Part shown: in pieces, positions 7,318 through 44,893 of the stretch | Numbering within the stretch: position 1 is the first letter of the stretch | Layout: every line of letters starts with the position of its first letter | DNA from: Candidatus Hermodarchaeum yapensis | GTDB taxonomy: Archaea > Asgardarchaeota > Hermodarchaeia > Hermodarchaeales > Hermodarchaeaceae | Assembly: GCA_016840405.1 (NCBI GenBank) | Contig: JAEOSK010000001.1 | Span: forward strand, 40,952 to 104,951 | Length of the DNA: 64,000 nucleotides | Direction: 5' to 3' | Made by a program: the position numbers and the translations under genes | Notes under the pieces: model-generated | What the model was told of the DNA's origin: nothing | What the model saw: only the letters and a program-made list of their open reading frames with translations | Databases searched by the model: none

Positions 7318-8547
7318 TTAAGCAAGAAGGGCTTGAACTTCGTCAGGGAACTCTATTTCGATATCATTGCGAACCAACTTGGAAATTCCAGATTCAAGGC
7401 GTTTTTGCAGGGTTTTTAACCGCGCAGTAATCCGGGTGACTTGTTCCTCTATATGCGCGATTTCAGATTTCACATCCCGATGCTCCCACTCAGCACGTTC
7501 CAAGGATTTCTCCAAATCTCGACGCTCATCCGACGACACCGCACTCTCTAGCTCATCTTTCCGAGACGCAAGGTTGGAAAACCGCAACCGATACTCATCT
7601 AAGTCCCCTTTCTCAACTACCCCGGTCTTCCGATCCAACACTTTTCGATTCAAACTCGCCTTAAAATTCATCTTACCATTTTGAATAGCCTCCGCCAACG
7701 CCATCAATCCTGCTTTCAACCGCTCAAGATCATCTGTATCACGCTGGAAAGCCGTCCACGGATCCTTCGAATATGCATCGGCCCCCTCGCCCGCTACTGA
7801 GGAGATCATTATCGACTGGCCTGCCGCCTGACTTACCTTCTTAAACGGTTTCTTGAGAAAATTCAACTGGTTCGTCACAATCATTCGAATACTATCAATT
7901 TCCTTGCGGATTCCATCGATCTCCGCCAAGCCAGAATCCATCCTGAACTGTTCAATCCCCTCCTGGTGTTCCTCGACCCTCCCCGCGGTCTGCTCCTTCT
8001 GTTCCCTTAACTTCGCCAATTGTTCAGATAATGCCAACACGTGTCGAGACCGCTCATCAATCTCCTCTACTTCCTCACCAACCAGTTCCACCTGCTTCGG
8101 TAATTTTTCCTTTTCCCAATTTTTCTTAATCTTCTGATATCCCTGTCCAATCGACCTAAATTGGTAATCCAACTCTTTGATAATCTTCTTATGCACACGC
8201 GGTAACCGCGGAATATACCGCCGCCCAGCATGCGTCGTATCCTGCAAATAATCCTCTAAATCATCCAGCAATTCCTCTACCGAAGAATAGGTAATCTCCT
8301 CTGGAAACACCATGTCCTTTGCACTACTTTTCAAACGGCTCGCTAACTTCTGAGCCGAACCGGGCACCGTCAACTCCCCATCAATCACTACCTCTTCCAA
8401 TAGCTCATCCGACGTCTCTACCGTTTTCACCAACGCCTCATCAATCCGGTCCAACTGCTTCTGAATATCCAACCGATAATTCGAAAGCAACTCACTGGTC
8501 CGCTCAGCAAACCACTCCGGCAACTCATGCACGCCAATCACAGTCAA
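7318..8547 (-). CDS. coiled-coil protein (409 aa), partner gene of longin-GTPase; strongly G/T-ending codon usage
   Basis: long heptad-rich K/E/L sequence; divergent from 8527 gene. Confidence 0.6.
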   Translation of the reverse strand: MTVIGVHELPEWFAERTSELLSNYRLDIQKQLDRIDEALVKTVETSDELLEEVVIDGELTVPGSAQKLASRLKSSAKDMVFPEEITYSSVEELLDDLEDYLQDTTHAGRRYIPRLPRVHKKIIKELDYQFRSIGQGYQKIKKNWEKEKLPKQVELVGEEVEEIDERSRHVLALSEQLAKLREQKEQTAGRVEEHQEGIEQFRMDSGLAEIDGIRKEIDSIRMIVTNQLNFLKKPFKKVSQAAGQSIMISSVAGEGADAYSKDPWTAFQRDTDDLERLKAGLMALAEAIQNGKMNFKASLNRKVLDRKTGVVEKGDLDEYRLRFSNLASRKDELESAVSSDERRDLEKSLERAEWEHRDVKSEIAHIEEQVTRITARLKTLQKRLESGISKLVRNDIEIEFPDEVQALLA

Positions 8548-9600
8548 TCTTCACAGCCTCGCTTCACAAAACAGAACCACCTACTAAAAAAACTACCTCA
8601 AGAGAATCCTAATCACCACCCCGCCCAAGCAGCTTGCACGAAAAGCTTATCAACGCTCTTCCATAGTCAAGAATGCAACGCTAAAATCTTATGCTGTGGT
8701 GAGCGGGCAATTATCCATAATGCAATTCTTTTCAACATCAGCCCCCGCAAAGACGAAGTCGGGCTCCAAGCCAACGTCATCTTCCACAAACAATACTGGC
8801 GCGTCCCCCTCAGCGACAACATGATCGGCGAATTCTTACGCGCCTACAAAGAATTCATGAGCCACGTCCAAAGCACCGACCTCCCCGCCCTCCCAATCCA
8901 CATCCAAGGCACCAAATTCATCTTCACCAACATCGAAGACCTCCTCCTCGTCTTCATCAGCCACATGCAAGACGACGACAGCCGCGTCAACGAAAAAGTC
9001 AAAACCGCCCTCCGCATGCTCGTCGGCAAATACGGCACCGAACACATCAAAGACATCGCCACCAACAACAACACCCAACCCATCGAAGACCTCATCGACA
9101 ACTACATCATGAGCAAACTCAAAGTCAGCCTCGTCGGCGAAGGCGGCGTCGGCAAAACCACCCTCCTCCGCCTCCTCAAAGGCACCGCCCCACCCACCGA
9201 ATACGTCCCCACCATCGCCCTCAGCATCGAACAAATCGAAGCCACCCGCTACGGCACCTACCAAATCATCCTTTGGGACTTCGCCGGCCAAGAACGCTTC
9301 CGCCGCCTCTGGACCATCTACTTCCGCGGCTCAGATATTGTATTTATTATTACGGACTCCACCCTCAACAACGTCATCGCCACCAAAGAAATCCTCGACG
9401 TCATCCGCAAAGACGCCCCCGGCGTCCCCGTCTGGGCCATCGCCAACAAACAAGACCTCGAAGGCGCCCTCTCCCCCGAACTCGTAGAACGAATTTTAGG
9501 TATTCCAGCATTTGGTATGGTCGCCATCGACCAAGCCCGCAAAGAAGAGATGCTCCAAATTTTGCTGGATGCAGTCGATCGCTACATCGGGACGGAGTAA
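8527..9600 (+). CDS. small Ras/Arf-like GTPase fused to N-terminal longin/roadblock-like domain; first ~60 aa low-complexity, true start uncertain
   Basis: G1 GEGGVGKTT, G3 WDFAGQERF, G4 ANKQDL; N-domain aligns with paralog at 32828; extreme C-ending codon usage. Confidence 0.75.
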   Translation: MHANHSQSSQPRFTKQNHLLKKLPQENPNHHPAQAACTKSLSTLFHSQECNAKILCCGERAIIHNAILFNISPRKDEVGLQANVIFHKQYWRVPLSDNMIGEFLRAYKEFMSHVQSTDLPALPIHIQGTKFIFTNIEDLLLVFISHMQDDDSRVNEKVKTALRMLVGKYGTEHIKDIATNNNTQPIEDLIDNYIMSKLKVSLVGEGGVGKTTLLRLLKGTAPPTEYVPTIALSIEQIEATRYGTYQIILWDFAGQERFRRLWTIYFRGSDIVFIITDSTLNNVIATKEILDVIRKDAPGVPVWAIANKQDLEGALSPELVERILGIPAFGMVAIDQARKEEMLQILLDAVDRYIGTE

Positions 9601-13195: not shown

Positions 13196-13816
13196 TCACT
13201 TTTTTAATTTAACTTGATTTTTTAACGTTTCAAGGTCAGTGGCAGATGTATAAATAATTGGTTTAAAACCAAGATGTTGCCAGAAGGCTTCAGCTTCTTT
13301 GTTCCCGAGAACATACCGTAGGCTGATATGACTAACATTTTCTACTTCAAAGTACTTGCAGAGTTTGTGTATCAGCTGAGTGCCTATTCCATGTCGTCTA
13401 TAGTTTTCCAATACAAAGATCATGCCGATTATCCCCGCTTCATTAGGTTCGTATTCAATTCGTTTAAGGATCTGTCCATAGGCAAAGCCCACGATGTTAT
13501 TATCCTGTTCGGCAACCAGAACAAGACTCGTGTCGTTGGTGAGCAAGTGGCTGACATCGTGGACCAATTTCTGCCGCCCAGCCTTGGTGATTCGCCATAT
13601 AAGTGGATTAGACTGCTCTACGTGCTGTTGTAATTTTATTCGTAAATTCAAAATTTTCTCCTGATCAGCAGTTGTCGCTCTTCGAACAAGCATTCCAAAT
13701 TCTCTCCTTATTTGTCCAAACCCTTGTTGTATACATCGGTTGGTGTGGACTCTCATTTCTGTTTCTTTGGGGTGGGATTCTGCCTTTCGCACCTTCAACG
13801 TGAATCTTCTTTTCAT
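13196..13816 (-). CDS. GNAT family N-acetyltransferase
   Basis: RRHGIGTQLI acetyl-CoA binding motif. Confidence 0.7.
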   Translation of the reverse strand: MKRRFTLKVRKAESHPKETEMRVHTNRCIQQGFGQIRREFGMLVRRATTADQEKILNLRIKLQQHVEQSNPLIWRITKAGRQKLVHDVSHLLTNDTSLVLVAEQDNNIVGFAYGQILKRIEYEPNEAGIIGMIFVLENYRRHGIGTQLIHKLCKYFEVENVSHISLRYVLGNKEAEAFWQHLGFKPIIYTSATDLETLKNQVKLKK

Positions 13817-15297
13817 ACATCTTCTATCCCCTCAATTCGCGCTAGAGTCCATCTTCCCTTATCTGTCAGATCATAATATTGTCTTTTGGATTTTCGATAG
13901 GTTTGAACGGAGCGTGTTCGTGTGATAAGACCAGTGCGTATCAGCTCGTTAAGGTGTTGATACACACTTGATACTGAAACCTTGACGCCTGTTTCTGCAA
14001 TTAGTGTCTTCCAAATAGCATAGCCATATGATTCATTTCTTTGGAGAATCTTAAGGATGTGGAGTTTAGTTCCGCCCAATTTTGTTGTATACTTTCGTTT
14101 CTCAACGCGACCAAGAAGATGTTCTATATTGGTATGGCCTTTTGCAATGGTTTGAGCAATTTCTGGGTATTTTAATCCCATCCCAGTAATTACACAGATG
14201 ATTTTATCTCCTGTGTCAATTGAACCTTCTCGAAGTATTTGATGTAAAGCTGCAATAGTTGCAGCTGATGCGGGTTCAGCAAAAACACCTTCTAAACTAG
14301 CTAATGAACTGACGGCATCCAAAATTGCACTATCTGAAACTGAAACAGTAAAGCCCTCCGATTCACGAATTGCATCTAAAGCAAGTTTTCCACAAGACGG
14401 GTTTTTCATTCCAATATCTATAGCTATCGTCGATGCCTTGGTTGATGGTTCAACGGATTTACTGCCCTTTTGAAAGGCAGTAACAATGGGGGCACATCCT
14501 TTTGCTTGTACGCCGATGAGTTTTGGTGGTTCCTTTTCCATCCATCCGAGCAATTGTAATTCTTTGATTGCTTTCCAAATCATTGAAAGATGACCACCAT
14601 TTCCCATGGGCACAAGAATCCAGTCTGGGGGAATCCAATCGAGTTGTTCACAAATCTCATAGCCTGTGGTTTTCACACCCTCAAGAAAGTAAGGGCTATG
14701 ACCAATTATTGTGTGTGCATTCGGGGCTCTTTCTATCGTTCGTGCTTCTCCCTCCTCGCGGTCTTTCACTATTTCTAATTCTGGTTGATAAGCGATTATT
14801 TGGTAGAGTTTGCCAATGTCGACTCTTTGTGGCACAAACACATGACTTTTCATTCCTGCTCTAGCAGCATAAGCAACTACCGAGGCTGCAAGGTTGCCTG
14901 ATGAGCCACATGAAACGGCTTTGAAACCAAGTTCTTTTGCTTTTGATATTTCAACACTTGTTCCGCGATCAATGAAAGCCCCTGTAGGATTGGTGGTTTC
15001 ATCCTTTAGGTAGAGCTGTCGTAAACCCAGTTTTTGGGCGAGGCGGTCGCATTCATGCAGAAATGTTCCTCCCTCTCCTAGAGAAACAATGTTCCGCCGA
15101 TCCTGTACTGGAAGCAGTTCAAAATACTTCCAAACACCTGGTTCTCTGTCAGCTAATGATGAAACATCAATCTGATTATGGATTGCTTCAAGATCATAAA
15201 CAACCTCGAACAAACCACCACATTGAGGGCACCCATGTATTGGAGGCGACGGGCGTTCCGTTTCGTAGGCGCATTCTGAACATCGGAGCTTTGACAT
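13813..15297 (-). CDS. Threonine-synthase-like PLP-fold domain (N-terminal Zn ribbon) lacking the PLP-lysine, fused to C-terminal PadR-type winged-helix DNA-binding domain
   Basis: CSEC...CPQCGG ribbon; YLKDETTNPTGAFIDRG where canonical SFKDRG lysine is Ile (codon ATT at 14971-14973 on minus strand); C-term LHILKILQRNESYGYAIWK...VYQHLNELIRTGLI = PadR HTH. Confidence 0.75.
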   Translation of the reverse strand: MSKLRCSECAYETERPSPPIHGCPQCGGLFEVVYDLEAIHNQIDVSSLADREPGVWKYFELLPVQDRRNIVSLGEGGTFLHECDRLAQKLGLRQLYLKDETTNPTGAFIDRGTSVEISKAKELGFKAVSCGSSGNLAASVVAYAARAGMKSHVFVPQRVDIGKLYQIIAYQPELEIVKDREEGEARTIERAPNAHTIIGHSPYFLEGVKTTGYEICEQLDWIPPDWILVPMGNGGHLSMIWKAIKELQLLGWMEKEPPKLIGVQAKGCAPIVTAFQKGSKSVEPSTKASTIAIDIGMKNPSCGKLALDAIRESEGFTVSVSDSAILDAVSSLASLEGVFAEPASAATIAALHQILREGSIDTGDKIICVITGMGLKYPEIAQTIAKGHTNIEHLLGRVEKRKYTTKLGGTKLHILKILQRNESYGYAIWKTLIAETGVKVSVSSVYQHLNELIRTGLITRTRSVQTYRKSKRQYYDLTDKGRWTLARIEGIEDV

Positions 15298-15324
15298 TGC
15301 AACTAATATTCTATTTGTTGCCTA

Positions 15325-15346
15325 TATATAAGTAATTACTTATATA
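15325..15346. promoter_or_regulatory. perfect 22-bp palindrome TATATAAGTAATTACTTATATA in divergent promoter region; candidate PadR operator and/or bidirectional TATA elements
   Basis: read directly; lies between starts at 15297 (-) and 15386 (+). Confidence 0.4.
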
Positions 15347-15385
15347 ATCCCTTTTTCTTTCTCAATTTTGAAGAGGTGGTCTTAA

Positions 15386-16018
15386 TTGACTGCGATACAT
15401 CTCAATTCATTATTCAATAAAAAAATCAAACTTCAACAAACCAGGGTTTTTTCTTCGACTTCGATTTTTGGTGTTAACAATCCTGTTTTTTCTCGTCCAT
15501 CCGTGTTTTTAGCACTCACTGCAATTTTCACAGCTCTGACGACGGTTACGACGCTTCTGATAGTTATCCCTTTCCCTGCAACCTCTGGGTACTTCAATCT
15601 AGGTGATTCAATGGTAATGATTAGTGGACTACTTTTGGGTCCACTGGGAGGGTTCATTGCAGGTGGAATGGGGTCCGCTCTTGCTGATATGGTTGGATAT
15701 CCTCATTTTGCTCCAATTACGTTCCTTGTCAAAGGATGTGAAGGATTGGTTGTGGGCCTCGTTACCCAGCAAAATCAAACTTCGTCTCGAATTTATTTCA
15801 GGGATATTCTCGGGTTACTTTTGGGTGCCTTCATCATGTTACTTGGGTATTTCATTGCAGAAGCTCTCCTTTTTGGTTTGGAGGCTGCCCTTCTGGAATT
15901 AGTCTGGGTCAACTCGATACAAATTACATTTGGAATTATTGTCGCCCTTCTTATTGGGTCTGTCACACGGAGATATGTGGCTTCAAATCTGATTTCTCAA
16001 CTGGATAGGGTAAAATAA
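15386..16018 (+). CDS. ECF-transporter S-component-like small membrane protein (true start probably internal)
   Basis: 6 TM, NLGDSMVMISGLLLGPLGGFIAGGMGSALAD motif typical of S components; stop overlaps rSAM start (TAATG). Confidence 0.45.
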   Translation: MTAIHLNSLFNKKIKLQQTRVFSSTSIFGVNNPVFSRPSVFLALTAIFTALTTVTTLLIVIPFPATSGYFNLGDSMVMISGLLLGPLGGFIAGGMGSALADMVGYPHFAPITFLVKGCEGLVVGLVTQQNQTSSRIYFRDILGLLLGAFIMLLGYFIAEALLFGLEAALLELVWVNSIQITFGIIVALLIGSVTRRYVASNLISQLDRVK

Positions 16019-17037
16019 TGCAGATCACCAGCGTAGATTTTCTAATCACTTTTCGATGCAATGCAAGTTGTAAGCATTGTGGTTACAGAGCAGGACCTTC
16101 CAATCACGGTTATATGAAAGTCGATGACGCAAAAAAGTGGTTATCTACACTAGCTTCAGCTCACCCACTTCAATCAATTACTATTCACGGAGGAGAACCG
16201 CTCCTCTTTTTTCCAAATTATTGTTTAGAGAGGATACTTCGATATGCCACAGAGTTGAACATTCCTAAACGAGGGATTATTACTAATGGATTTTGGGCAA
16301 CAGACAAGGAAACTGCCCGGCGAAAGCTTACGAAACTTAAATCCTGTGGGCTTACGAATATCACATTTAGTGTAGATGGATTTCATCAAGAACACATTCC
16401 AATCGAAACTGTTCGAATTTGTATAGAAGAAGCAGTTGCCTTGGGCTTTACAAAAGTTGGAATACTAAGCCATTATCTTATTTCCCCCAAGGCGGAGAAT
16501 ATCTATAACAAATTAACAAATCAGGCATTAGCCAAAATTGAAGATATTGATGGAATTCAAATTGCACGGTATAAAACTAGCCTATACGGACGAGCTGCAG
16601 AGACATTAGCTGAATTTATGGAAAAAGATTCAAAACTGCCTTCAGGGCCTTGTCGGCTTTCTTATTGGCTTGGTAGTGAAATTCAAAATCCTAAAGCCAT
16701 CGAAATTGACTTTGATGGGCATGTTACGTTATGTCCGGGTATTTGCATTGGGAATCTAAAAACTCAACCACTAACCGACGTATTAAGAGACTATGTTCCT
16801 CACAAGCATCCGATTCTGAGTATTCTCGCTCGTGATGGACCTATGGGGTTAGCCAAAGTAGTTGATGATTTAAAAATTTACTATGATCACCGGTTTGTCG
16901 ATGAATGCCATTTGTGCTATGAAATGCGGCGGCTTCTCCAAAGACACTTTCCACTACGCCTTGCCCCCTCCTCTTGCTATTTACCCGCAACTTCGAGACA
17001 GACTATGCCAATTCCATTTCTTTCAAGATGTTTATGA
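16018..17037 (+). CDS. radical SAM enzyme with C-terminal SPASM-like Cys-rich domain
   Basis: CNASCKHCGY (CxxxCxxC), later CRLSY...CPGICIGN...CHLCYE. Confidence 0.7.
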   Translation: MQITSVDFLITFRCNASCKHCGYRAGPSNHGYMKVDDAKKWLSTLASAHPLQSITIHGGEPLLFFPNYCLERILRYATELNIPKRGIITNGFWATDKETARRKLTKLKSCGLTNITFSVDGFHQEHIPIETVRICIEEAVALGFTKVGILSHYLISPKAENIYNKLTNQALAKIEDIDGIQIARYKTSLYGRAAETLAEFMEKDSKLPSGPCRLSYWLGSEIQNPKAIEIDFDGHVTLCPGICIGNLKTQPLTDVLRDYVPHKHPILSILARDGPMGLAKVVDDLKIYYDHRFVDECHLCYEMRRLLQRHFPLRLAPSSCYLPATSRQTMPIPFLSRCL

Positions 17038-17049
17038 CCAGAGTGGTGT

Positions 17050-17589
17050 ATGTCAGTGAAAGAAAGTCCACAGAGTAAACAGATGACTGCAATAAGAATT
17101 CGGAGTGCAAATGAAAACGATATACCTGGGATTCATATGGTAATCAGTAAAGGGTTTTGGGGTCTTCAAAGGCGAGGATATTCAAAGAAAGCAATTGAAG
17201 CAGCAATTCCCTCTCGAAGTGAAATTCAACAACGTTTACTTTTGCCTAAAACGGTTGTATTTGTAGCTGCAAATGAAGACCAAATTATTGGAACAGTTAC
17301 TGGAAGTGAGAAATTCGAACACTTTCATGTCCAGTCCTTTGCGGTTGATCCTAGGTTTCAAGGGCACCGAGTTGGGTATAGTCTTATGACTGAACTTGAA
17401 AAAAGCGCTCGACAATTTAATTGTAAGAAATTATTTGTGCAAACCGCCTGGGCAATGTTTGAAGCCATTAAACTGTATCTGAAGTTAGATTTTGAACTGG
17501 AGGGATATCATCCAAGACATTTTTTTGGAGAAGTATTGCTGTCGTTTGGCAAAATTCTGAAACCATCAAAAAATGGTAATCGAGTGTGA
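17050..17589 (+). CDS. GNAT family N-acetyltransferase
   Basis: FQGHRVGYSLM motif. Confidence 0.65.
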   Translation: MSVKESPQSKQMTAIRIRSANENDIPGIHMVISKGFWGLQRRGYSKKAIEAAIPSRSEIQQRLLLPKTVVFVAANEDQIIGTVTGSEKFEHFHVQSFAVDPRFQGHRVGYSLMTELEKSARQFNCKKLFVQTAWAMFEAIKLYLKLDFELEGYHPRHFFGEVLLSFGKILKPSKNGNRV

Positions 17590-17684
17590 TTATGTTCCTG
17601 CCAAGGTCCTTCTGTGTTGAATATGGAATTGGGGCATCAGCCAATGGACATTTTTTCACATAGTCACCAAAGGGAGATTTACTA

Positions 17685-18641
17685 TTGATCAACTCATCTA
17701 TCAAATACTATCTAAGCCTAATAATTGCATCAATTTGCTTTGGGAGCATTGCTGTTTTTGCGTTCTATCTGACCCTATTTGGTGTTTCTTCAACACAGCA
17801 GACATTCTTTCGAATACTCTTTACGGCATTTTACCTGTTTTGTGGTCTAGGTGTTTGGCTTCGCTTTCATGATATTTCCATTAGACCCGAGCACGTAACA
17901 CTTTTTGTCCTCTATGGACTGATAGGGGTGTGTGCACCCCTTTTTACTTACATAACTGCTATTGCAATAGGTACGCCAGTTATCGTTGCAGTTTCGCTAG
18001 CCTATCTTTATCCTGCTATTACACTTATCCTTGCCAGAATTTTTCTAAATGAATTGTTCAATTTGAAACGAATCATCGCTGTAGTTTGTTCTATAACTGG
18101 GGCAATCGTTATTTCAACACCAATAATTTCTGAATATTTCCCGATACCTGTTTTTGGCTTCATTCTATCAGCATTAACTGCTTTGTTTTTAGCCTGTTTC
18201 ATGGTGGTGGGACGAAAATTAGGTGGATATGAGGATTATAACCCACTTGTCACTACATTCTGGGGATATTTATTTGGGTCTTTATGGATGGGTGTTATTC
18301 TACTCGGTCTGCAGTTTCTAATCATTGATCCTCGTATTGTTGGGTTCCAATTGATATTACCAATACCTGTTTGGGTTTTACTTCTCGGGTTTGCCTTAAT
18401 TGCCACAGCAATTCCCTACACATTAACTAATTATGGAATGAAGCGAATTGATGCTTCCGTAACCTCAATCATTCTACTACTTGACCCACTAAGTAGTGTT
18501 ATCTTTGGAATCCTCTTGATGGGTCAAGTAGTGGTATTTTGGCAACTCAGTGGTGCATCGTTAATTCTTATTGCTACCATACTAACTGGCCTTGAACAAA
18601 AATCATCTAAAAAGAACAGTATAAGGCAAAAGGGGAGCTAA
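17685..18641 (+). CDS. EamA/DMT-superfamily transporter (10 TM)
   Basis: two 5-TM halves, hydrophobic profile. Confidence 0.65.
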   Translation: MINSSIKYYLSLIIASICFGSIAVFAFYLTLFGVSSTQQTFFRILFTAFYLFCGLGVWLRFHDISIRPEHVTLFVLYGLIGVCAPLFTYITAIAIGTPVIVAVSLAYLYPAITLILARIFLNELFNLKRIIAVVCSITGAIVISTPIISEYFPIPVFGFILSALTALFLACFMVVGRKLGGYEDYNPLVTTFWGYLFGSLWMGVILLGLQFLIIDPRIVGFQLILPIPVWVLLLGFALIATAIPYTLTNYGMKRIDASVTSIILLLDPLSSVIFGILLMGQVVVFWQLSGASLILIATILTGLEQKSSKKNSIRQKGS

Positions 18642-18660
18642 GAAATCATACCGGGCTGGG

Positions 18661-18713
18661 GTTGATGATGGTGCCGAGTTTTTTGCCGATGAGTATGAGG
18701 AAGAGGATGTCAC
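18661..18713. repeat. direct repeat copy A: remnant duplicate of helicase gene 3' end (33/33 identical then 15/20)
   Basis: gttgatgatggtgccgagttttttgccgatgag identical at 18661 and 19834. Confidence 0.6.
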
Positions 18714-18796
18714 TTAAAAAAATTAAATATTTATTTTTTCTTTTTAAGGAACATAATACTTAAACTGTCGGCTCATTCTCTTTTAGACATCGCATA

Positions 18797-19822
18797 TTGG
18801 TTGGAAGCTTCGGAGGGTTGTGTATGTTCCAGGTTACGCTTCGTGGTTCACATTATGAAATTGGCAGGCAATATGGAATGCTACTTAAAAACAAGGGGAT
18901 CAAATATCCAAGACCAACGGATGTGGCGATCCGATTTGCAGCAAAGGTTGAACAAGAAGTTGCTAATTTAGTCCCAGAACTGATTGAAGAAATCCAGGGA
19001 ATCACAGATGGAAGTGGATTTGATTTTGAGATTATACGAACCTTTGCGCTCACCGTGGGTAGGAGTCCAGCCTGTACAATACTCGCAATTCCTGGTCAAT
19101 ATACCGTAGATGGACACCCAATCTTTGCCCGAAACTATGATGCCACTCCTACATTTCAGGACTTCACTCTCTATCGGACTTATCCGAAGAAACACCTCGC
19201 CCATATGGGTTGTTGTTTTGATATGCTTGTAGGCCGAGAGGATGGATTAAATGAAGCGGGTGTTGCTATTGCCGTTGCAGGTGTCCATGGCCTTTACACA
19301 GACGCACCTGGTGTGTGGGATCATATCCCCCTCCGGGCGGTCCTGGATCATTGTACATCCGTTGACCAAGCTGTTGCACTGCTGAAACAATTTCCCCATT
19401 TTTGGACAAAGAATTTTCTTGTTGCAGATACTAAGGGACACATTGCCATCATTGAAGCTGCCCAACAACGAATCTCTGTTCATTACCCACAAAACGAGAT
19501 TGGCGCTATCACCAACCACTTCGTTTCCTCTTCAATGCAGCCTTTTAATGATTCCAATAGAACCATGCCTCAAACCCATCATCGCCTCCAAATCCTCAAA
19601 GATTGGTTTCAGCAGCAGACAAATGTCATTAAAATTAGTCAGATTAAGCGTATTCTAAAAAATCCTAAAACCGGCATCTGTTCAAACAATTTAGAAACAT
19701 CCACGCAAAAGGGATTTCTAACAATCTGGTCTTGGATAGCCAAACTTGGTAATCGGAGTTTCGAAATGGCAACAGGAACCCCAATCACCCTCTCTTCTAG
19801 ATACAAAAGCTACTCTTTCTAA
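18797..19822 (+). CDS. C45-family (acyl-CoA:6-aminopenicillanic acid acyltransferase/choloylglycine hydrolase-like) autoproteolytic Ntn hydrolase
   Basis: N-term GSHYEIGRQYG, internal S-P-A-C-T candidate nucleophile; 341 aa. Confidence 0.5.
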   Translation: MVGSFGGLCMFQVTLRGSHYEIGRQYGMLLKNKGIKYPRPTDVAIRFAAKVEQEVANLVPELIEEIQGITDGSGFDFEIIRTFALTVGRSPACTILAIPGQYTVDGHPIFARNYDATPTFQDFTLYRTYPKKHLAHMGCCFDMLVGREDGLNEAGVAIAVAGVHGLYTDAPGVWDHIPLRAVLDHCTSVDQAVALLKQFPHFWTKNFLVADTKGHIAIIEAAQQRISVHYPQNEIGAITNHFVSSSMQPFNDSNRTMPQTHHRLQILKDWFQQQTNVIKISQIKRILKNPKTGICSNNLETSTQKGFLTIWSWIAKLGNRSFEMATGTPITLSSRYKSYSF

Positions 19823-42500: not shown

Positions 42501-44893
42501 GTATCAGATTGTTTGTTGAAAGCTGCGTATTGTTTTGCAGTAAAGTCTTGAAATGCTGTCAAGAGTGTATCAAGTTGTGTTTTTATGCTCAAGATGATTT
42601 TCTTGTTAATTCTCTTGAGTGCAGCTTTTGTTACTTGCTTTCTTCCAGCTAATTGGGCGGTTTTGGCTGCTTGCTTTTCCAAGGTTGTTTGTTTGTTTTT
42701 CAGTGTGGTCTTGTAACCATCTAAGGCTGCTAGGGCATTTGGAGGTATTATTTCTGAAAGAGAGGTAGTTAGACCATTGATTACTTTTAGATCTCTGTTG
42801 GTTAACTGAGTTGAATGGGATTGAACGGCCTTAGCAATCGCTGCTTCTCGTTTATCTTGAATTTCAATAATTGAGGGCTGAAACTCTGCAATTGCGGTTT
42901 CAACTTTGGCAATCTGTTCCTGTCTTAAACGGGTTGCAGTGGTTTCAACACCATCAGAGTATTGTTTCACAATATTTTCAAGTTGGGAAAATTCCCTTTG
43001 CAACTCTGAGGTTGATGTGTTCGTGATTTTATTCAAGGCTGCTTTAAATGTACGCAGCTGTTTATCTACAATTTGTTGAGTCTTGGTGGCTTTAGTGATA
43101 TTTTCTGCTGCTGCCTGTTTAACTGCCTTCTGGGTTTGTCTAATCCTGTCTTGAGCATATTGACCGATTTGATCCTTAGTTGTTTTTAGGCTAACAAGCA
43201 CAACGTTTCTTTCTTGGTTTACCAGTTTTTGGACCCGTTTACTAAGAGTACGACTCTGTTCTTCTTGTAATGCAATTTTCGATTGGAAATCGGTGAGAAA
43301 CGATTCAGTAGTTTTTTGGGCAGTTGTCAACCGTCGTTTTAGCCGTTTTCCAATCTGGCCTCCCATGGATTTGAAATTCTTTTGCAGAGTGGTTTGTGTT
43401 GCAGCAAAATTCTTGATTATTGATTGGAGGAGAGTGCGTACTTCAAGAAGGTGGGAAAGGTAAGCATCCCTCATTTCGATACCTAAACCTTCACTGGCGG
43501 CCTCAAGGATTTGTTCATGTTCTAATTTCACTTGTTCTGTAAGCGCGGCTAAATCAAATTTGATTTTTGAGAACTGATTAAACGTGAGTGCAGAAGGTGG
43601 CCATTGAGCAATAGTTGTGCTCGCTTCTTTATGCAACCCTTGGAATCCCCGGCTAGTGGTTTCAAATGACTTCTGCAACTCTTGAAAGAGGGAATTAGTG
43701 ATTTGAACAGAAGTTTTTCGGGAGGTATTTATTGTAGTTTCCATTTCAGTTGCGGTTTTATTTGCTCTCTGTGTTAAACGGCGGCCATCTTTCTTCAGCG
43801 CCTTCTCCATTTGTACTACAGTTTCATTCAATGCCTGGGTTCGTCGCGTCCAAACATCAAAAACTTGAGTGTTGATATCTTGAATGCTCTTTGAGAGGGT
43901 TTTTTCAATGCCTGCTTGAAAAGTTTTGAGGGCTTGTTGTGATTCTTGACTATAGGTGTCGATTTTGCTTGTAAGATCAATAGCAGTTTCGTCTGTAATT
44001 TCTGATGTACCTTCTTTTTGTGTCGTAATTCCTGCTGATAATGTCTTGAGGGTGGAATCAACACTTCTCTGGTAAACGGAGTCGGCGTCTTCAAGGTGTG
44101 ATTTCACTTGTTGGGTACAGGTATCCGCTTGATTGAGTACACGGTCTGCAATTGTTGTGGTCCATTGTTCTGTTTCCTCTCTGTGAGTTTCCATCGCCTT
44201 GTTGGCATCGTCCAAAGCTAGTTTCTGGGTGTCCTCGAATTGCTTTTTTCCCTCTCCTATTGTTTGTTTAAGAGATTGTTGCAGAGCAATTGTTTGATTT
44301 GATAGTTCATCGGTGCTTGAAGCAGAAAGATTGGTCAAAGCTTTTTGAAGGTTTTCAGAAACATTGCTCAAAACAATATTTGTGGTCATCGCGGCTTCAT
44401 TCAATGCAATTCCCTGTCGCTCATTCAGATGTTCCAAGGATGAACGGATCTGTCTGGTCATGGACTGTAATTCGCTGTGTATCTCGTCTGTGGTTTTGTT
44501 TTGAAGTTTTTGTAATTCTTTCCATGACGCCCGAGTTTCCTTAGAAAATGCTTGAACTTCATTAGCTAGTTCCTTATAGGGTGCAAAAGCTCGGTAACGA
44601 GCAACCACGCCGGGGAGCGGTTTGACCAACTGTTTCTTCACGAGTGCGGCGATTGTACTCTCGACTTTGACTAGAGGAACGCCTGAATAGAGACTTATTT
44701 CTCCGGGTGTTAGTCGGCCCATAATTAGCAAAGCCGTGTATACTCGGCTCTGTGGCTCAGAAAGTTTAAATTGGACCTGCAATGCTAAAAGCAAGTCCGG
44801 AGAAATCTCAATTGGTGCTGGGCACTGTGGAGAACTTGCCTTCTCCCTTTCTGGGGCTGGAGGGGGGTTAGAATTACCTTCTTGTGGCGTCAT
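39506..44893 (-). CDS. giant (1795 aa) coiled-coil protein with N-terminal TrmB-like winged-helix domain and ~130-aa C-terminal globular domain
   Basis: N-term LSEPQSRVYTALLIMGRLTPGEISLYSGVPLVKVESTIAALVKKQLV = TrmB-type HTH; ~1500 aa of Q/T/E/K-rich heptads; no Walker motifs. Confidence 0.8.
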   Translation of the reverse strand: MTPQEGNSNPPPAPEREKASSPQCPAPIEISPDLLLALQVQFKLSEPQSRVYTALLIMGRLTPGEISLYSGVPLVKVESTIAALVKKQLVKPLPGVVARYRAFAPYKELANEVQAFSKETRASWKELQKLQNKTTDEIHSELQSMTRQIRSSLEHLNERQGIALNEAAMTTNIVLSNVSENLQKALTNLSASSTDELSNQTIALQQSLKQTIGEGKKQFEDTQKLALDDANKAMETHREETEQWTTTIADRVLNQADTCTQQVKSHLEDADSVYQRSVDSTLKTLSAGITTQKEGTSEITDETAIDLTSKIDTYSQESQQALKTFQAGIEKTLSKSIQDINTQVFDVWTRRTQALNETVVQMEKALKKDGRRLTQRANKTATEMETTINTSRKTSVQITNSLFQELQKSFETTSRGFQGLHKEASTTIAQWPPSALTFNQFSKIKFDLAALTEQVKLEHEQILEAASEGLGIEMRDAYLSHLLEVRTLLQSIIKNFAATQTTLQKNFKSMGGQIGKRLKRRLTTAQKTTESFLTDFQSKIALQEEQSRTLSKRVQKLVNQERNVVLVSLKTTKDQIGQYAQDRIRQTQKAVKQAAAENITKATKTQQIVDKQLRTFKAALNKITNTSTSELQREFSQLENIVKQYSDGVETTATRLRQEQIAKVETAIAEFQPSIIEIQDKREAAIAKAVQSHSTQLTNRDLKVINGLTTSLSEIIPPNALAALDGYKTTLKNKQTTLEKQAAKTAQLAGRKQVTKAALKRINKKIILSIKTQLDTLLTAFQDFTAKQYAAFNKQSDTIFKKTREEFNTIQDEQTQKLIELINEEFSTQITANLRNCKTKVSRQIKREKQIDTLFQKTVNRVLALPKTLLPKEKKMVRDKLTNELTVILDEFREKLRNQTDRESQISTIFEETLSTLQQLPQELLPGLAEQHLHSQVITPQSIFVDYQSILEKQQKDYAKNIATKLRSLHEQLLYANYSNDLKITLTNLVKKGSSTAVENYQTTLTNSYADLEVQANTAFQNSLDKRLRTQLSEKLREYQDTQAPPVSSTIQALETKLGEALEKYDTRVKTRVDRYWLPITKIMDDYSSNIAANLNALNTAIGSAVDQATVNVSTTLANFGDDAGNLLTATAQAFEREKTGFNEQLTQGINEMQEDCLAQLNETETLLEGLVEDISAQETILTQKMETMSDEIETATDSNLSAIRQTADKFVESVQNESESQTKRAEDIVDHMRDLIREQSATVTATISEIQTQLKNFDQNQITSTQDIIENIGQTCASKIDEQRNAIDKHLGTFATALLDETEDYVSTLQQELVQLQTVASKLVEAIGSTSETINTESSKLLEMNKVNLLTAIDDQQASLSKESSSVFQSFVEELNTIQTQLIDQLTQIAEEGKEGSVLTSEQIEMVLEETKNQTVSKGAEIIQAQQSSLTTHTNTLSDQLREKLSALGNSVNATLDQLIELSTSTLSGSQRELSKIISDTSQAIDEDNEKLKTAFGQDIEQSLQSHAKSLDLIKTRLARATQDNIRHTNEVMQQFEETALTDINQRSSNILAAVQQITETAEEGLVAQTQQTGRRISRTLSKERQTLKTEYQTLAKEITSKAKSAETTSVNTLQLFSMKTEPILERLRNQATGTEQILAGLWETLSTLQLAEVERTGIVVTCEGVQNHLLEMFRRVNETVTLVYPSFEEVPIDELSKVKPQSRVHIITTLDGDKHKTSAKKLLQQGNIRIWDNPVMKFYGGSRDGEEVLIAPTAVDQGEIVAVVSDQASYISLFNRTLGPRWISASQEIRLRS

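Follow-up and report, generated by a model that had tools for sequence, protein, structure and literature searches.

The closest described counterpart of the system considered here is the bacterial regulator PdxR (MocR subfamily of GntR). Encoded divergently from pdxST or beside pdxU, PdxR binds between pdxR and pdxST, acts as repressor of its own gene and governs B6 synthesis and uptake, with pyridoxal 5'-phosphate (PLP) as effector; its regulon includes pdxST, pdxK and pdxU, and the MocR family has been reported absent from Archaea (PMC5320631). In Archaea, RbkR joins a riboflavin kinase to a winged helix-turn-helix (wHTH) domain and uses lineage-specific palindromes of 16-20 bp, single or doubled, and its regulon, which was found by comparative genomics, comprises biosynthesis genes, vitamin transporters of the energy-coupling factor (ECF) type and its own gene (PMC5397151). 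Here we describe a perfect 22-bp palindrome at positions 15325-15346 of a 64-kb stretch of DNA from the Asgard archaeon Candidatus Hermodarchaeum yapensis (contig JAEOSK010000001.1; this whole stretch is called the window hereafter). The palindrome lies between the gene of a ThrC-like/PadR fusion protein and a divergent operon that starts with the S-component of a PdxU/PdxU2-type ECF transporter (ECF-S), and it is rather likely to be the core of a compact promoter/operator between this gene of an enzyme-derived transcription factor and that operon. That the region is a functional cis-element of the regulator/ECF-S gene pair is highly probable.

Like PdxR, the window protein combines an effector domain derived from a PLP enzyme with a winged helix, and genes of its family likewise stand divergent to pdxS or a PdxU-family gene with a shared operator region. 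The two proteins are nevertheless non-homologous: PdxR has an N-terminal GntR wHTH and a fold-type-I aminotransferase-like domain, whereas here a fold-type-II ThrC-like (PALP) domain is followed by a C-terminal PadR domain. With this composition and the opposite domain order the protein is not a member of the MocR/PdxR family and would stand beside it as an archaeal functional analogue; most fused ThrC-PadR members, unlike PdxR, have also lost the PLP lysine. The likeness to RbkR is that of an archaeal vitamin regulator (for the window protein, a predicted one) made from an enzyme domain and a winged helix, but the enzyme domain (still active in RbkR), the wHTH family and the vitamin all differ. 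ThiR is another enzyme-derived archaeal vitamin regulator. By Pfam score, PDB matches and topology, the C-terminal domain resembles the PadR regulators B. subtilis PadR, LmrR and Halobacterium RosR. PadR proteins bind inverted repeats as dimers and commonly autoregulate; canonical members are stand-alone proteins of 100-190 aa with the ligand at the dimer interface or in the C-terminal domain, whereas here the wHTH sits on a 400-aa enzyme-derived domain. The window protein resembles threonine synthase (ThrC, EC 4.2.3.1) in its fold-type-II PLP domain, in the PLP phosphate loop and in the TGxGLK motif; it differs in having Ile109 in place of lysine, an added C-terminal DNA-binding domain, and neighbours that are B6 genes rather than thr genes.

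The elements of the intergenic region and the two genes that face away from it are, in window coordinates:

13813-15297, minus strand: gene of the ThrC-like/PadR fusion protein (the regulator gene), 494 aa; PALP 225 bits, PadR 53 bits against a cut-off of 27
15320-15346, plus strand: 27-nt block GCCTATATATAAGTAATTACTTATATA, comprising TATA box, spacer, 12-bp dyad and one further base
15321-15332: 12-bp dyad unit, CCTATATATAAG on the plus strand and CTTATATATAGG on the minus strand; predicted site of a PadR-domain dimer
15325-15346: perfect 22-bp palindrome TATATAAGTAATTACTTATATA, that is TATATAAG-TAATTA-CTTATATA, its own reverse complement
15333-15338: 6-nt spacer TAATTA between TATA box and dyad
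15339-15346, minus strand: predicted TATA box of the regulator gene, TATATAAG, which aligns with the invariant TATATAA of the module described below
15347-15354, minus strand: purine-rich stretch AAAGGGAT, abutting the TATA box upstream in the direction of the regulator gene and similar to a B recognition element (BRE) by consensus resemblance only
15373-15379, plus strand: Shine-Dalgarno-like GAGGTGG of the ECF-S gene
15386-16018, plus strand: ECF S-component of the PdxU/PdxU2 (HmpT) family, PF07155 at 126.8 bits against 26.7; first gene of the divergent operon

A preliminary description, made from the sequence of the window, had reported a perfect 22-bp inverted repeat between a ThrC-PadR gene and an ECF-S/radical-SAM operon, and both the symmetry and the gene assignments were borne out. 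The distances it gave are also correct, namely 28 nt from 15325 to the A of the regulator ATG (15297, minus strand) and 40 nt from 15346 to the TTG of the ECF-S gene (15386, plus strand). The arms end at 22 bp, the outer neighbours being A at 15324 and A at 15347. The 22-mer is the longest perfect palindrome of the window, with runners-up of 16 and 14 bp, and a palindrome of at least 22 bp arose in 3 of 200 first-order Markov shuffles. No second site with up to 3 mismatches was found in the 64 kb. Because the arm octamer TATATAAG occurs only twice in the window, both times as a palindrome arm, the 22-mer is not generic AT-rich sequence, an occurrence that the preliminary description had named as grounds for dropping the element. 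Taken together, the shuffles, the uniqueness of the arms and the conservation described below rule out chance or generic AT-rich sequence, with conservation as the stronger argument. The second-longest perfect palindrome (AAATCAAATTTGATTT, 16 bp, 43551-43566) has a length that is common in shuffled sequence and is probably due to chance.

Conservation was studied in numbered comparison loci (labels of the style L001-L214). Read toward the regulator gene, the 27-nt block is TATATAAGTAATTACTTATATATAGGC, the 22-mer plus the five bases TAGGC on the regulator side, and every orthologous locus of Hodarchaeota-like type retains it exactly, with fusion proteins 94 % (L007), 84 % (L213), 81 % (L009/L010) and 81 % (L011/L012) identical to that of the window. 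The block is thus invariant in five lineages with fusion proteins of 81-94 % identity (alignment A1 and L213), and the 22-mer itself is identical in L007, L009/L010, L011/L012 and L213/L214, as the preliminary description had proposed to check. On either side of the block the flanks diverge freely. The divergent ECF-S gene is retained in all these loci, and its Shine-Dalgarno-like sequence and start position are conserved in the orthologues (TTG/TTG/GTG). Beyond the close relatives, a module that spans the element is kept across phyla, but the perfect 22-bp symmetry is absent from other lineages and specific to the Hodarchaeota-like one. The fusion protein is identical on 19 contigs, including assembly GCA_030587465.1, and its nearest named relative, at 81 % identity, comes from a Candidatus Hodarchaeota metagenome-assembled genome (MAG). 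The host is an Asgard archaeon, and therefore archaeal promoter and TATA logic applies. A small GTPase gene at 8526-9600 (plus strand; Arf, Ras and Roc Pfam matches), equivalent to that at 10698-11485 of L003/L005, is consistent with an Asgard host.

A protein-profile scan of one genome per species, anchored on the protein rather than the DNA, yielded 80 loci, 74 with a fused and 6 with an unfused gene. The records are titled as Asgard lineages, Bathyarchaeia, Nitrososphaerota, Thermoplasmata, Hadarchaeota and Methanomethylicota, and one (L063) as a Limnocylindrales bacterium MAG. Upstream of fusion genes with a divergent partner lies a common module, which consists of TATATAA(S), six variable bases, the 12-bp dyad CCTATATATAGG and then usually a C; it occurs in about 30 protein-anchored loci from Asgard archaea, Bathyarchaeia, Nitrososphaerota and Thermoplasmata. 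Allowing up to 2 mismatches and up to 150 nt upstream, CCTATATATAGG was present before 22 of the 26 fusion genes with a divergent partner, in each case with TATATAA exactly 6-7 nt ahead of it. In an unbiased positional profile, information is high only in TATATAA and the 12-mer, the latter being the highest-information stretch, and the spacer between them is constant in length across lineages and variable in sequence. Most module-bearing loci also have a purine-rich stretch ahead of TATATAA.

The window carries the same module, offset from the 22-mer. Its dyad differs from the family consensus CCTATATATAGG by one mismatch, is the only match to it in the window at up to 2 mismatches, and reaches 4 nt outside 15325-15346. 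Toward the regulator gene the module reads TATATAAG-TAATTA-CTTATATATAGG-C, with the same spacing as in distant lineages. Of the two palindrome arms, the one farther from the regulator gene (15339-15346) is the counterpart of the conserved TATATAA, and the nearer one (15325-15332) is the distal two-thirds of the conserved dyad. The 22-bp palindrome exists because the TATA box is the reverse complement of this distal part of the dyad and the spacer between them is self-symmetric; the symmetry is perfect because of a CCT to CTT mismatch together with the symmetric spacer TAATTA in the Hodarchaeota-like lineage.

A metagenome scan with the pattern ATATATAA-N7-CYTAHATATAGG returned 120 loci, 92 with a CC and 28 with a CT form. 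A fusion gene lay directly downstream in the correct orientation in 76 of the 92 CC loci, and an ECF-S gene upstream in 4 more. Of the 28 CT loci, mostly in AT-rich sequence (12 listed), none had the fusion gene directly downstream. Since CC hits flank the fusion gene and CT hits do not, the module is essentially private to the fusion-gene family. Among the twelve CC matches that have neither a fusion nor an ECF-S gene there was one informative case, L119, in which a bare module (1151-1178) has a divergent pdxS (PF01680, 85 bits) and a weakly ECF-S-like gene on its other side. L106 is probably a truncated fusion locus, and the remaining leftover matches were set aside as unrelated or uninterpretable (a Thi4 gene with an HTH gene in L182, small open reading frames, phage-like proteins).

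The 12-mer behaves as a repeated unit: it is doubled after the TATA box as direct copies in L027 and L029 and as inverted copies in L028. Between dyad and start codon lie 3-5 nt in Nitrososphaerota and in part of the Bathyarchaeia, about 11 nt in loci of the Thor/Hermod type and 18-23 nt in Hodarchaeota-like ones, and at a gap of 3-5 nt the centre of TATATAAS stands 25-27 nt before the start codon. A distance of 25-27 nt from TATA centre to transcription start site (TSS) is standard for leaderless archaeal mRNAs. This agreement points to TATATAAS as the TATA box of the fusion gene and would place the dyad between this box and the inferred TSS, at about -16 to -5. In the Terraquivivens loci L030 and L033 the distance from this TATA box to the start codon of the divergent ECF-S gene is likewise about 26-28 nt, and one TATA box may there serve both directions, with the dyad on the BRE side for the divergent gene.

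Across 212 loci, two dyads were found in four loci only, none of which marks a clear extra target. A perfect 30-bp palindrome in L101 (1016-1045, CCTATATATAAGATATATCTTATATATAGG), in which two inverted 12-mer units stand 6 nt apart, was set aside as probably unrelated because it lies on an AT-rich contig with no credible open reading frames nearby. Elsewhere in the window, a near-identical element, GTTGAAAATCGTACCTGCCGGTTCCCGTTCATAAAAATA, lies upstream of each of three plus-strand genes (element at ~27690-27756, ~29040-29106 and ~30390-30453; genes at 27757, 29107 and 30454). These genes are tandem paralogues of about 400 aa, which suggests a duplicated promoter/operator unit.

Within the window promoter, the AT-rich 8-mer at 15339-15346 is of the archaeal box-A type and has the purine-rich, BRE-like stretch upstream of it, both judged by consensus resemblance only. 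Each arm matches a box-A type sequence, in agreement with the earlier remark that the arms look like archaeal TATA boxes. Depending on which of the two is taken as TATA box, the regulator leader would measure about 19-22 nt or about 4 nt, and the ECF-S leader about 18 nt or about 31-34 nt including the Shine-Dalgarno sequence; both assignments yield leaders of plausible length, and the box at 15339-15346 may be shared with the divergent operon. The proposal that the 22-mer itself is the operator stood in so far as a cis-element is indeed tied to the gene pair, but the cross-lineage element is TATATAAS, 6 nt and CCTATATATAGG, offset from the 22-mer. The same offset qualifies the proposed autoregulation and control of the divergent operon, which the comparative evidence otherwise favours.

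Four parts make up the protein encoded by the regulator gene: a Cys4 ribbon at the N-terminus, then a PLP domain of fold type II, a flexible linker at residues 401-406 and, at residues ~405-494 (13816-14085), a PadR winged helix whose recognition helix SVYQHL is encoded at 13951-13968. The PF03551 match extends over residues 414-486 and profile positions 1-74 of 75. When searched against the PDB, the C-terminal 95 aa matched 37 chains at E<=1, mainly of the PadR family (3l7w, 4ejo, 4esb, 5dym, AphA, RosR, 5x11), with Fur, RTP and a ribosomal protein among the weaker matches. An AlphaFold2 model has a mean predicted local distance difference test score (pLDDT) of 86.6, and a low-confidence linker parts the PadR domain from the enzyme domain. 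In this model the C-terminal domain (pLDDT ~80-92) has helices at 409-420, 425-436, 442-454 and 479-493 and strands at 458-465 and 471-477, which is the PadR topology of a1, a2, a3 (recognition helix), wing and a4 (C-terminal dimerisation helix).

Operator and recognition helix vary together in the fused family. The helix core YQHL.EL is invariant, and the residues at the start of the helix change with the DNA element: IPS/LPS occurs with CCTATATATAGG, DISS with CCCATATATGG(G) and SLVS with CYTATRYATAGG. In a large Bathyarchaeia branch the helix starts with MTRAA, the ECF-S gene is co-directional and downstream, and a different 22-bp palindrome, TAGTATAGTTnnAACTATACTA, precedes the ECF-S gene in 33 of 36 co-directional loci, in many of them with a degenerate second copy after it. 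This palindrome, TAGTATAGTT(A/G)(C/T)AACTATACTA, occupies a gap of about 150-200 nt after the fusion gene in L039-L091 (for example L041, L045, L053 and L073) and co-occurs with MTRAA and with Arg at the lysine position of the enzyme domain. Upstream of the fusion gene itself, these co-directional Bathyarchaeia loci have neither the CCTATATATAGG module nor any other shared dyad. This arrangement indicates that the conserved target would be the promoter of the partner gene. Together, the operator-helix co-variation, the invariant core and the PadR topology provide good comparative evidence for the fused wHTH as reader of these palindromes, and we consider it probable that the PadR domain is the binder.

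All database sources name the fusion protein threonine synthase, and it does score as one (TIGR00260 201 against 167.1 bits; NF006050 337.8 against 303 bits, in addition to the PALP match). Aligned with the solved ThrCs 2zsj, 6cgq and 1uim, which have NPTGSFKDRG, the window protein reads NPTGAFIDRG, with Ile109 (codon 14971-14973, minus strand) in place of the PLP Schiff-base lysine, as established for 1uim and its relatives. The column holds I or L throughout alignment A2 (31 members). Of the 74 fused homologues, 63 have another residue in place of the lysine and 9 keep it, with 2 unscored; by residue the tally is R 33, I 14, L 12, K 9, M 3, V 2, and one each of N, A and S. The lysine is kept in all 6 unfused archaeal ThrCs of the same scan. 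Both kinds occur in one Nitrososphaerota MAG (CAZWAU01, isolate SRP231805_co4_130), which has a fused protein of 491 aa with Leu at this position (L026, CAZWAU010000147.1) and an unfused one of 403 aa with NPTGSFKDR (L092, CAZWAU010000018.1), presumably paralogues with different roles. No second ThrC paralogue was found in the window.

The window protein retains the PLP phosphate loop (PMGNGGH) and the TGMGLK motif, which would be compatible with non-covalent binding of the phosphate of a B6 vitamer. Because the catalytic lysine is replaced by Ile109, the ThrC-like domain is probably a sensor rather than an enzyme and is predicted not to convert O-phosphohomoserine to threonine, so that the working threonine synthase implied by the name ThrC in the preliminary description did not hold up. 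The name threonine synthase is probably wrong for the fused family.

The link to vitamin B6 comes from the neighbouring genes. A PF07155 S-component or pdxS adjoins 65 of the 74 fused genes and 0 of the 6 unfused ones; among the 65, the ECF-S gene is co-directional in 36 and divergent in 22, pdxS is divergent in 4 and downstream in 1, and 2 have other positions. Over all loci, pdxS is the divergent partner in L027, L028, L031, L032, L115, L168 and L186, and the same-strand neighbour of the fusion gene in L057 and L063; none was found in the window. The B6 transporters PdxU and PdxU2/HmpT belong to PF07155 (PMC9997740). The sole PDB match of the window S-component is HmpT/PdxU2 (4hzu_S, E 4.5e-18, residues 44-195), whose extracted ligand was identified as pyridoxamine (PMC4860826). 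Of the HmpT pocket residues described there, Y120 and N140 are identical in the S-component, E41 is replaced by D and H84 by K. On the basis of this homology and of the substitution of pdxS as partner, we infer that the S-component transports a B6 vitamer. A B6 vitamer as the signal of the regulator itself has somewhat better than even support.

The remaining genes on either side of the pair are:

13196-13816, minus strand: GNAT acetyltransferase gene, whose start overlaps the regulator stop by 4 nt
16018-17037, plus strand: radical SAM/SPASM-like gene
17050-17589, plus strand: GNAT gene
17685-18641, plus strand: EamA transporter gene
18797-19822, plus strand: C45 autoproteolytic acyltransferase/hydrolase gene

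The GNAT gene at 13196-13816 is probably co-transcribed with the regulator gene, and co-transcription of the divergent string 16018-19822 would follow from its spacing. The order of the divergent genes is the same in L001-L008 and L011. The radical-SAM protein has a YydG-type peptide epimerase as its best, sub-threshold NCBIfam match and a weak SPASM match; window-type loci (L001-L008, L011 and L012) have its gene, whereas L009 and more distant loci lack it. In L108, L124, L159, L177 and L184 the module has as its divergent partner a GNAT homologous to the product of 17050-17589, and an uncharacterised multi-pass membrane protein of ~300-320 aa takes this place in L105, L106, L113, L120, L130, L147, L148, L161, L180, L183, L190 and L199. 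These recurrent GNAT and membrane proteins are candidate regulon members.

The comparative record, that is the sequence, its conservation, the gene pairing, the lysine loss and the operator/helix co-variation, is consistent with a model in which protein binding, TSS positions, the sign of regulation and the ligand are predicted as follows. A PadR-domain dimer would bind the 12-bp dyad between the TATA box and the TSS of the regulator gene, and the occupied dyad would block RNA polymerase recruitment, resulting in autorepression. For the divergent operon the dyad would lie on the BRE side of the TATA box, or over an alternative TATA box, which would bring about co-regulation. The most likely signal would be PLP or another B6 vitamer, held non-covalently by the ThrC-derived domain. 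The archaeal repressors MDR1, LrpA, Phr and TrmB-type proteins bind at the classic place, between TATA box and TSS, and block RNA polymerase recruitment without displacing TBP/TFB. The predicted dyad is likewise just downstream of the TATA box, a position inferred from start-codon distances only, but unlike the sites of those repressors it would also serve a second, divergent promoter. RbkR sites, by comparison, lie upstream of the promoter elements and suggest activation, whereas a dyad downstream of the regulator TATA box suggests repression.

We incline to the conserved 12-mer, rather than the full 22-mer, as the site used in the window lineage. The whole 8-6-8 palindrome could instead be the operator of one PadR dimer, with both arms as TATA boxes that are occluded on binding and the 12-mer as an ancestral site since replaced, which we regard as unlikely. 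The local dyad is asymmetric, and its sole deviation, the C to T change that gives CTT for CCT, is the very change that perfects the 22-mer, whose symmetry extends through the spacer and which is invariant in five lineages; selection in the window lineage may therefore act on the 22-bp dyad. Moreover, the Bathyarchaeia branch (clade B) of the same transcription factor family uses a 22-bp palindrome of the same 8-6-8 geometry, and the start of the recognition helix differs in the window lineage (SVSS/SVTS/SVPS against KIPS). Known PadR operators, as those of B. subtilis PadR and LmrR, are inverted repeats of about 16-24 bp, of the ATGT-N8-ACAT type; the 12-bp dyad is shorter, and would leave a winged-helix dimer little room if more than the outer CCT/AGG triplets were read. 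On the other hand, the invariant block runs 5 nt past the 22-mer on the regulator side to TAGGC, the rest of a 12/14-bp dyad, which a 22-mer operator would make superfluous, and the module is otherwise the same in spacing and sequence as in lineages that lack the 22-bp symmetry. With more than 100 distinct module sequences, a rough estimate gives a probability of ~0.2 that one lineage became symmetric by chance.

Two explanations dispense with the fusion protein as reader. A basal bidirectional promoter, in which back-to-back TATA boxes recruit TBP/TFB without a specific regulator and the symmetry reflects no more than two good TATA boxes, would account for the fit of each arm to the box-A type YTTATATA and for start-codon distances that suit either arm, and strong TA-repeat TATA elements are otherwise rare upstream of window genes. 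It would leave unexplained why the CC...GG-flanked CCTATATATAGG is conserved at fixed spacing beside one transcription factor family in several phyla, why 12-mers are doubled downstream of the TATA box and why the element co-varies with the recognition helix, and it is quite improbable. Very improbable is a role in nucleic-acid structure (a hairpin in the 5' untranslated region, an attenuator or a cruciform) or as the site of an unrelated transcription factor. A 33-nt RNA does form a hairpin of 9 bp (z-scores -3.9 and -3.0), but this hairpin is weak (-6.3 kcal/mol, all A-U/G-U-poor pairs), either arm as TATA box puts the palindrome upstream of both TSSs and hence untranscribed, and the symmetry on which it depends is absent in other lineages in which the module persists. 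With no Rfam family at E<=1 across 15150-15550 and so weak a hairpin, a riboswitch or other known RNA in the ECF leader was rejected as well. The element, finally, tracks the PadR fusion gene and not other factors.

Several further points weigh against binding of a B6-responsive PadR dimer to the 12-bp dyad. Across phyla, TATATAA is more strongly conserved than a generic TATA box would require, and the heptamer could be part of the site of the protein. In L025 the dyad is the sole AT-rich element upstream and may itself act as TATA box. The case for a B6 ligand, moreover, draws on gene neighbourhood and homology to one characterised transporter, and PF07155 has members with other substrates too. 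No further dyads or 22-mers that could define a regulon were found in the window, and with a single dyad in 64 kb no regulon can be defined for this genome.

There is nothing unusual in an autoregulated winged-helix factor whose palindromic operator lies in a divergent promoter. What appears undescribed in the literature searched is a family of lysine-less fold-type-II PLP domains joined to PadR, with conserved operators and a pairing with B6 genes across archaeal phyla; our search for a ThrC-PadR protein or an archaeal B6 regulator found nothing relevant. It is about an even call whether, across Asgard archaea, Bathyarchaeia, Nitrososphaerota, Thermoplasmata and Hadarchaeota, "threonine synthases" with a C-terminal PadR domain are, as descendants of a catalytically dead fold-type-II PLP enzyme, pan-archaeal B6 (PLP)-sensing transcription factors, which act on CCTATATATAGG beside a TATA box or on TAGTATAGTTnnAACTATACTA, control their own gene, PdxU-type transporters and pdxS, and form a non-homologous counterpart of PdxR.

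If this is true, the missing B6 regulator of Archaea, from which MocR/PdxR is reported absent (PMC5320631), would be identified, with an operator motif ready for regulon reconstruction and electrophoretic mobility shift assays, and a second, independent PLP enzyme fold would have been turned into the sensor of a transcription factor. The compact bidirectional promoter, with one TATA box and one dyad in ~30 bp, would offer a testbed for how one repressor acts on two divergent pre-initiation complexes. A widespread annotation error would also be corrected: calls of "thrC present" in Asgard reconstructions may be wrong where the fused protein is the only homologue, which bears on predictions of amino-acid auxotrophy in Asgard and other uncultured archaea.

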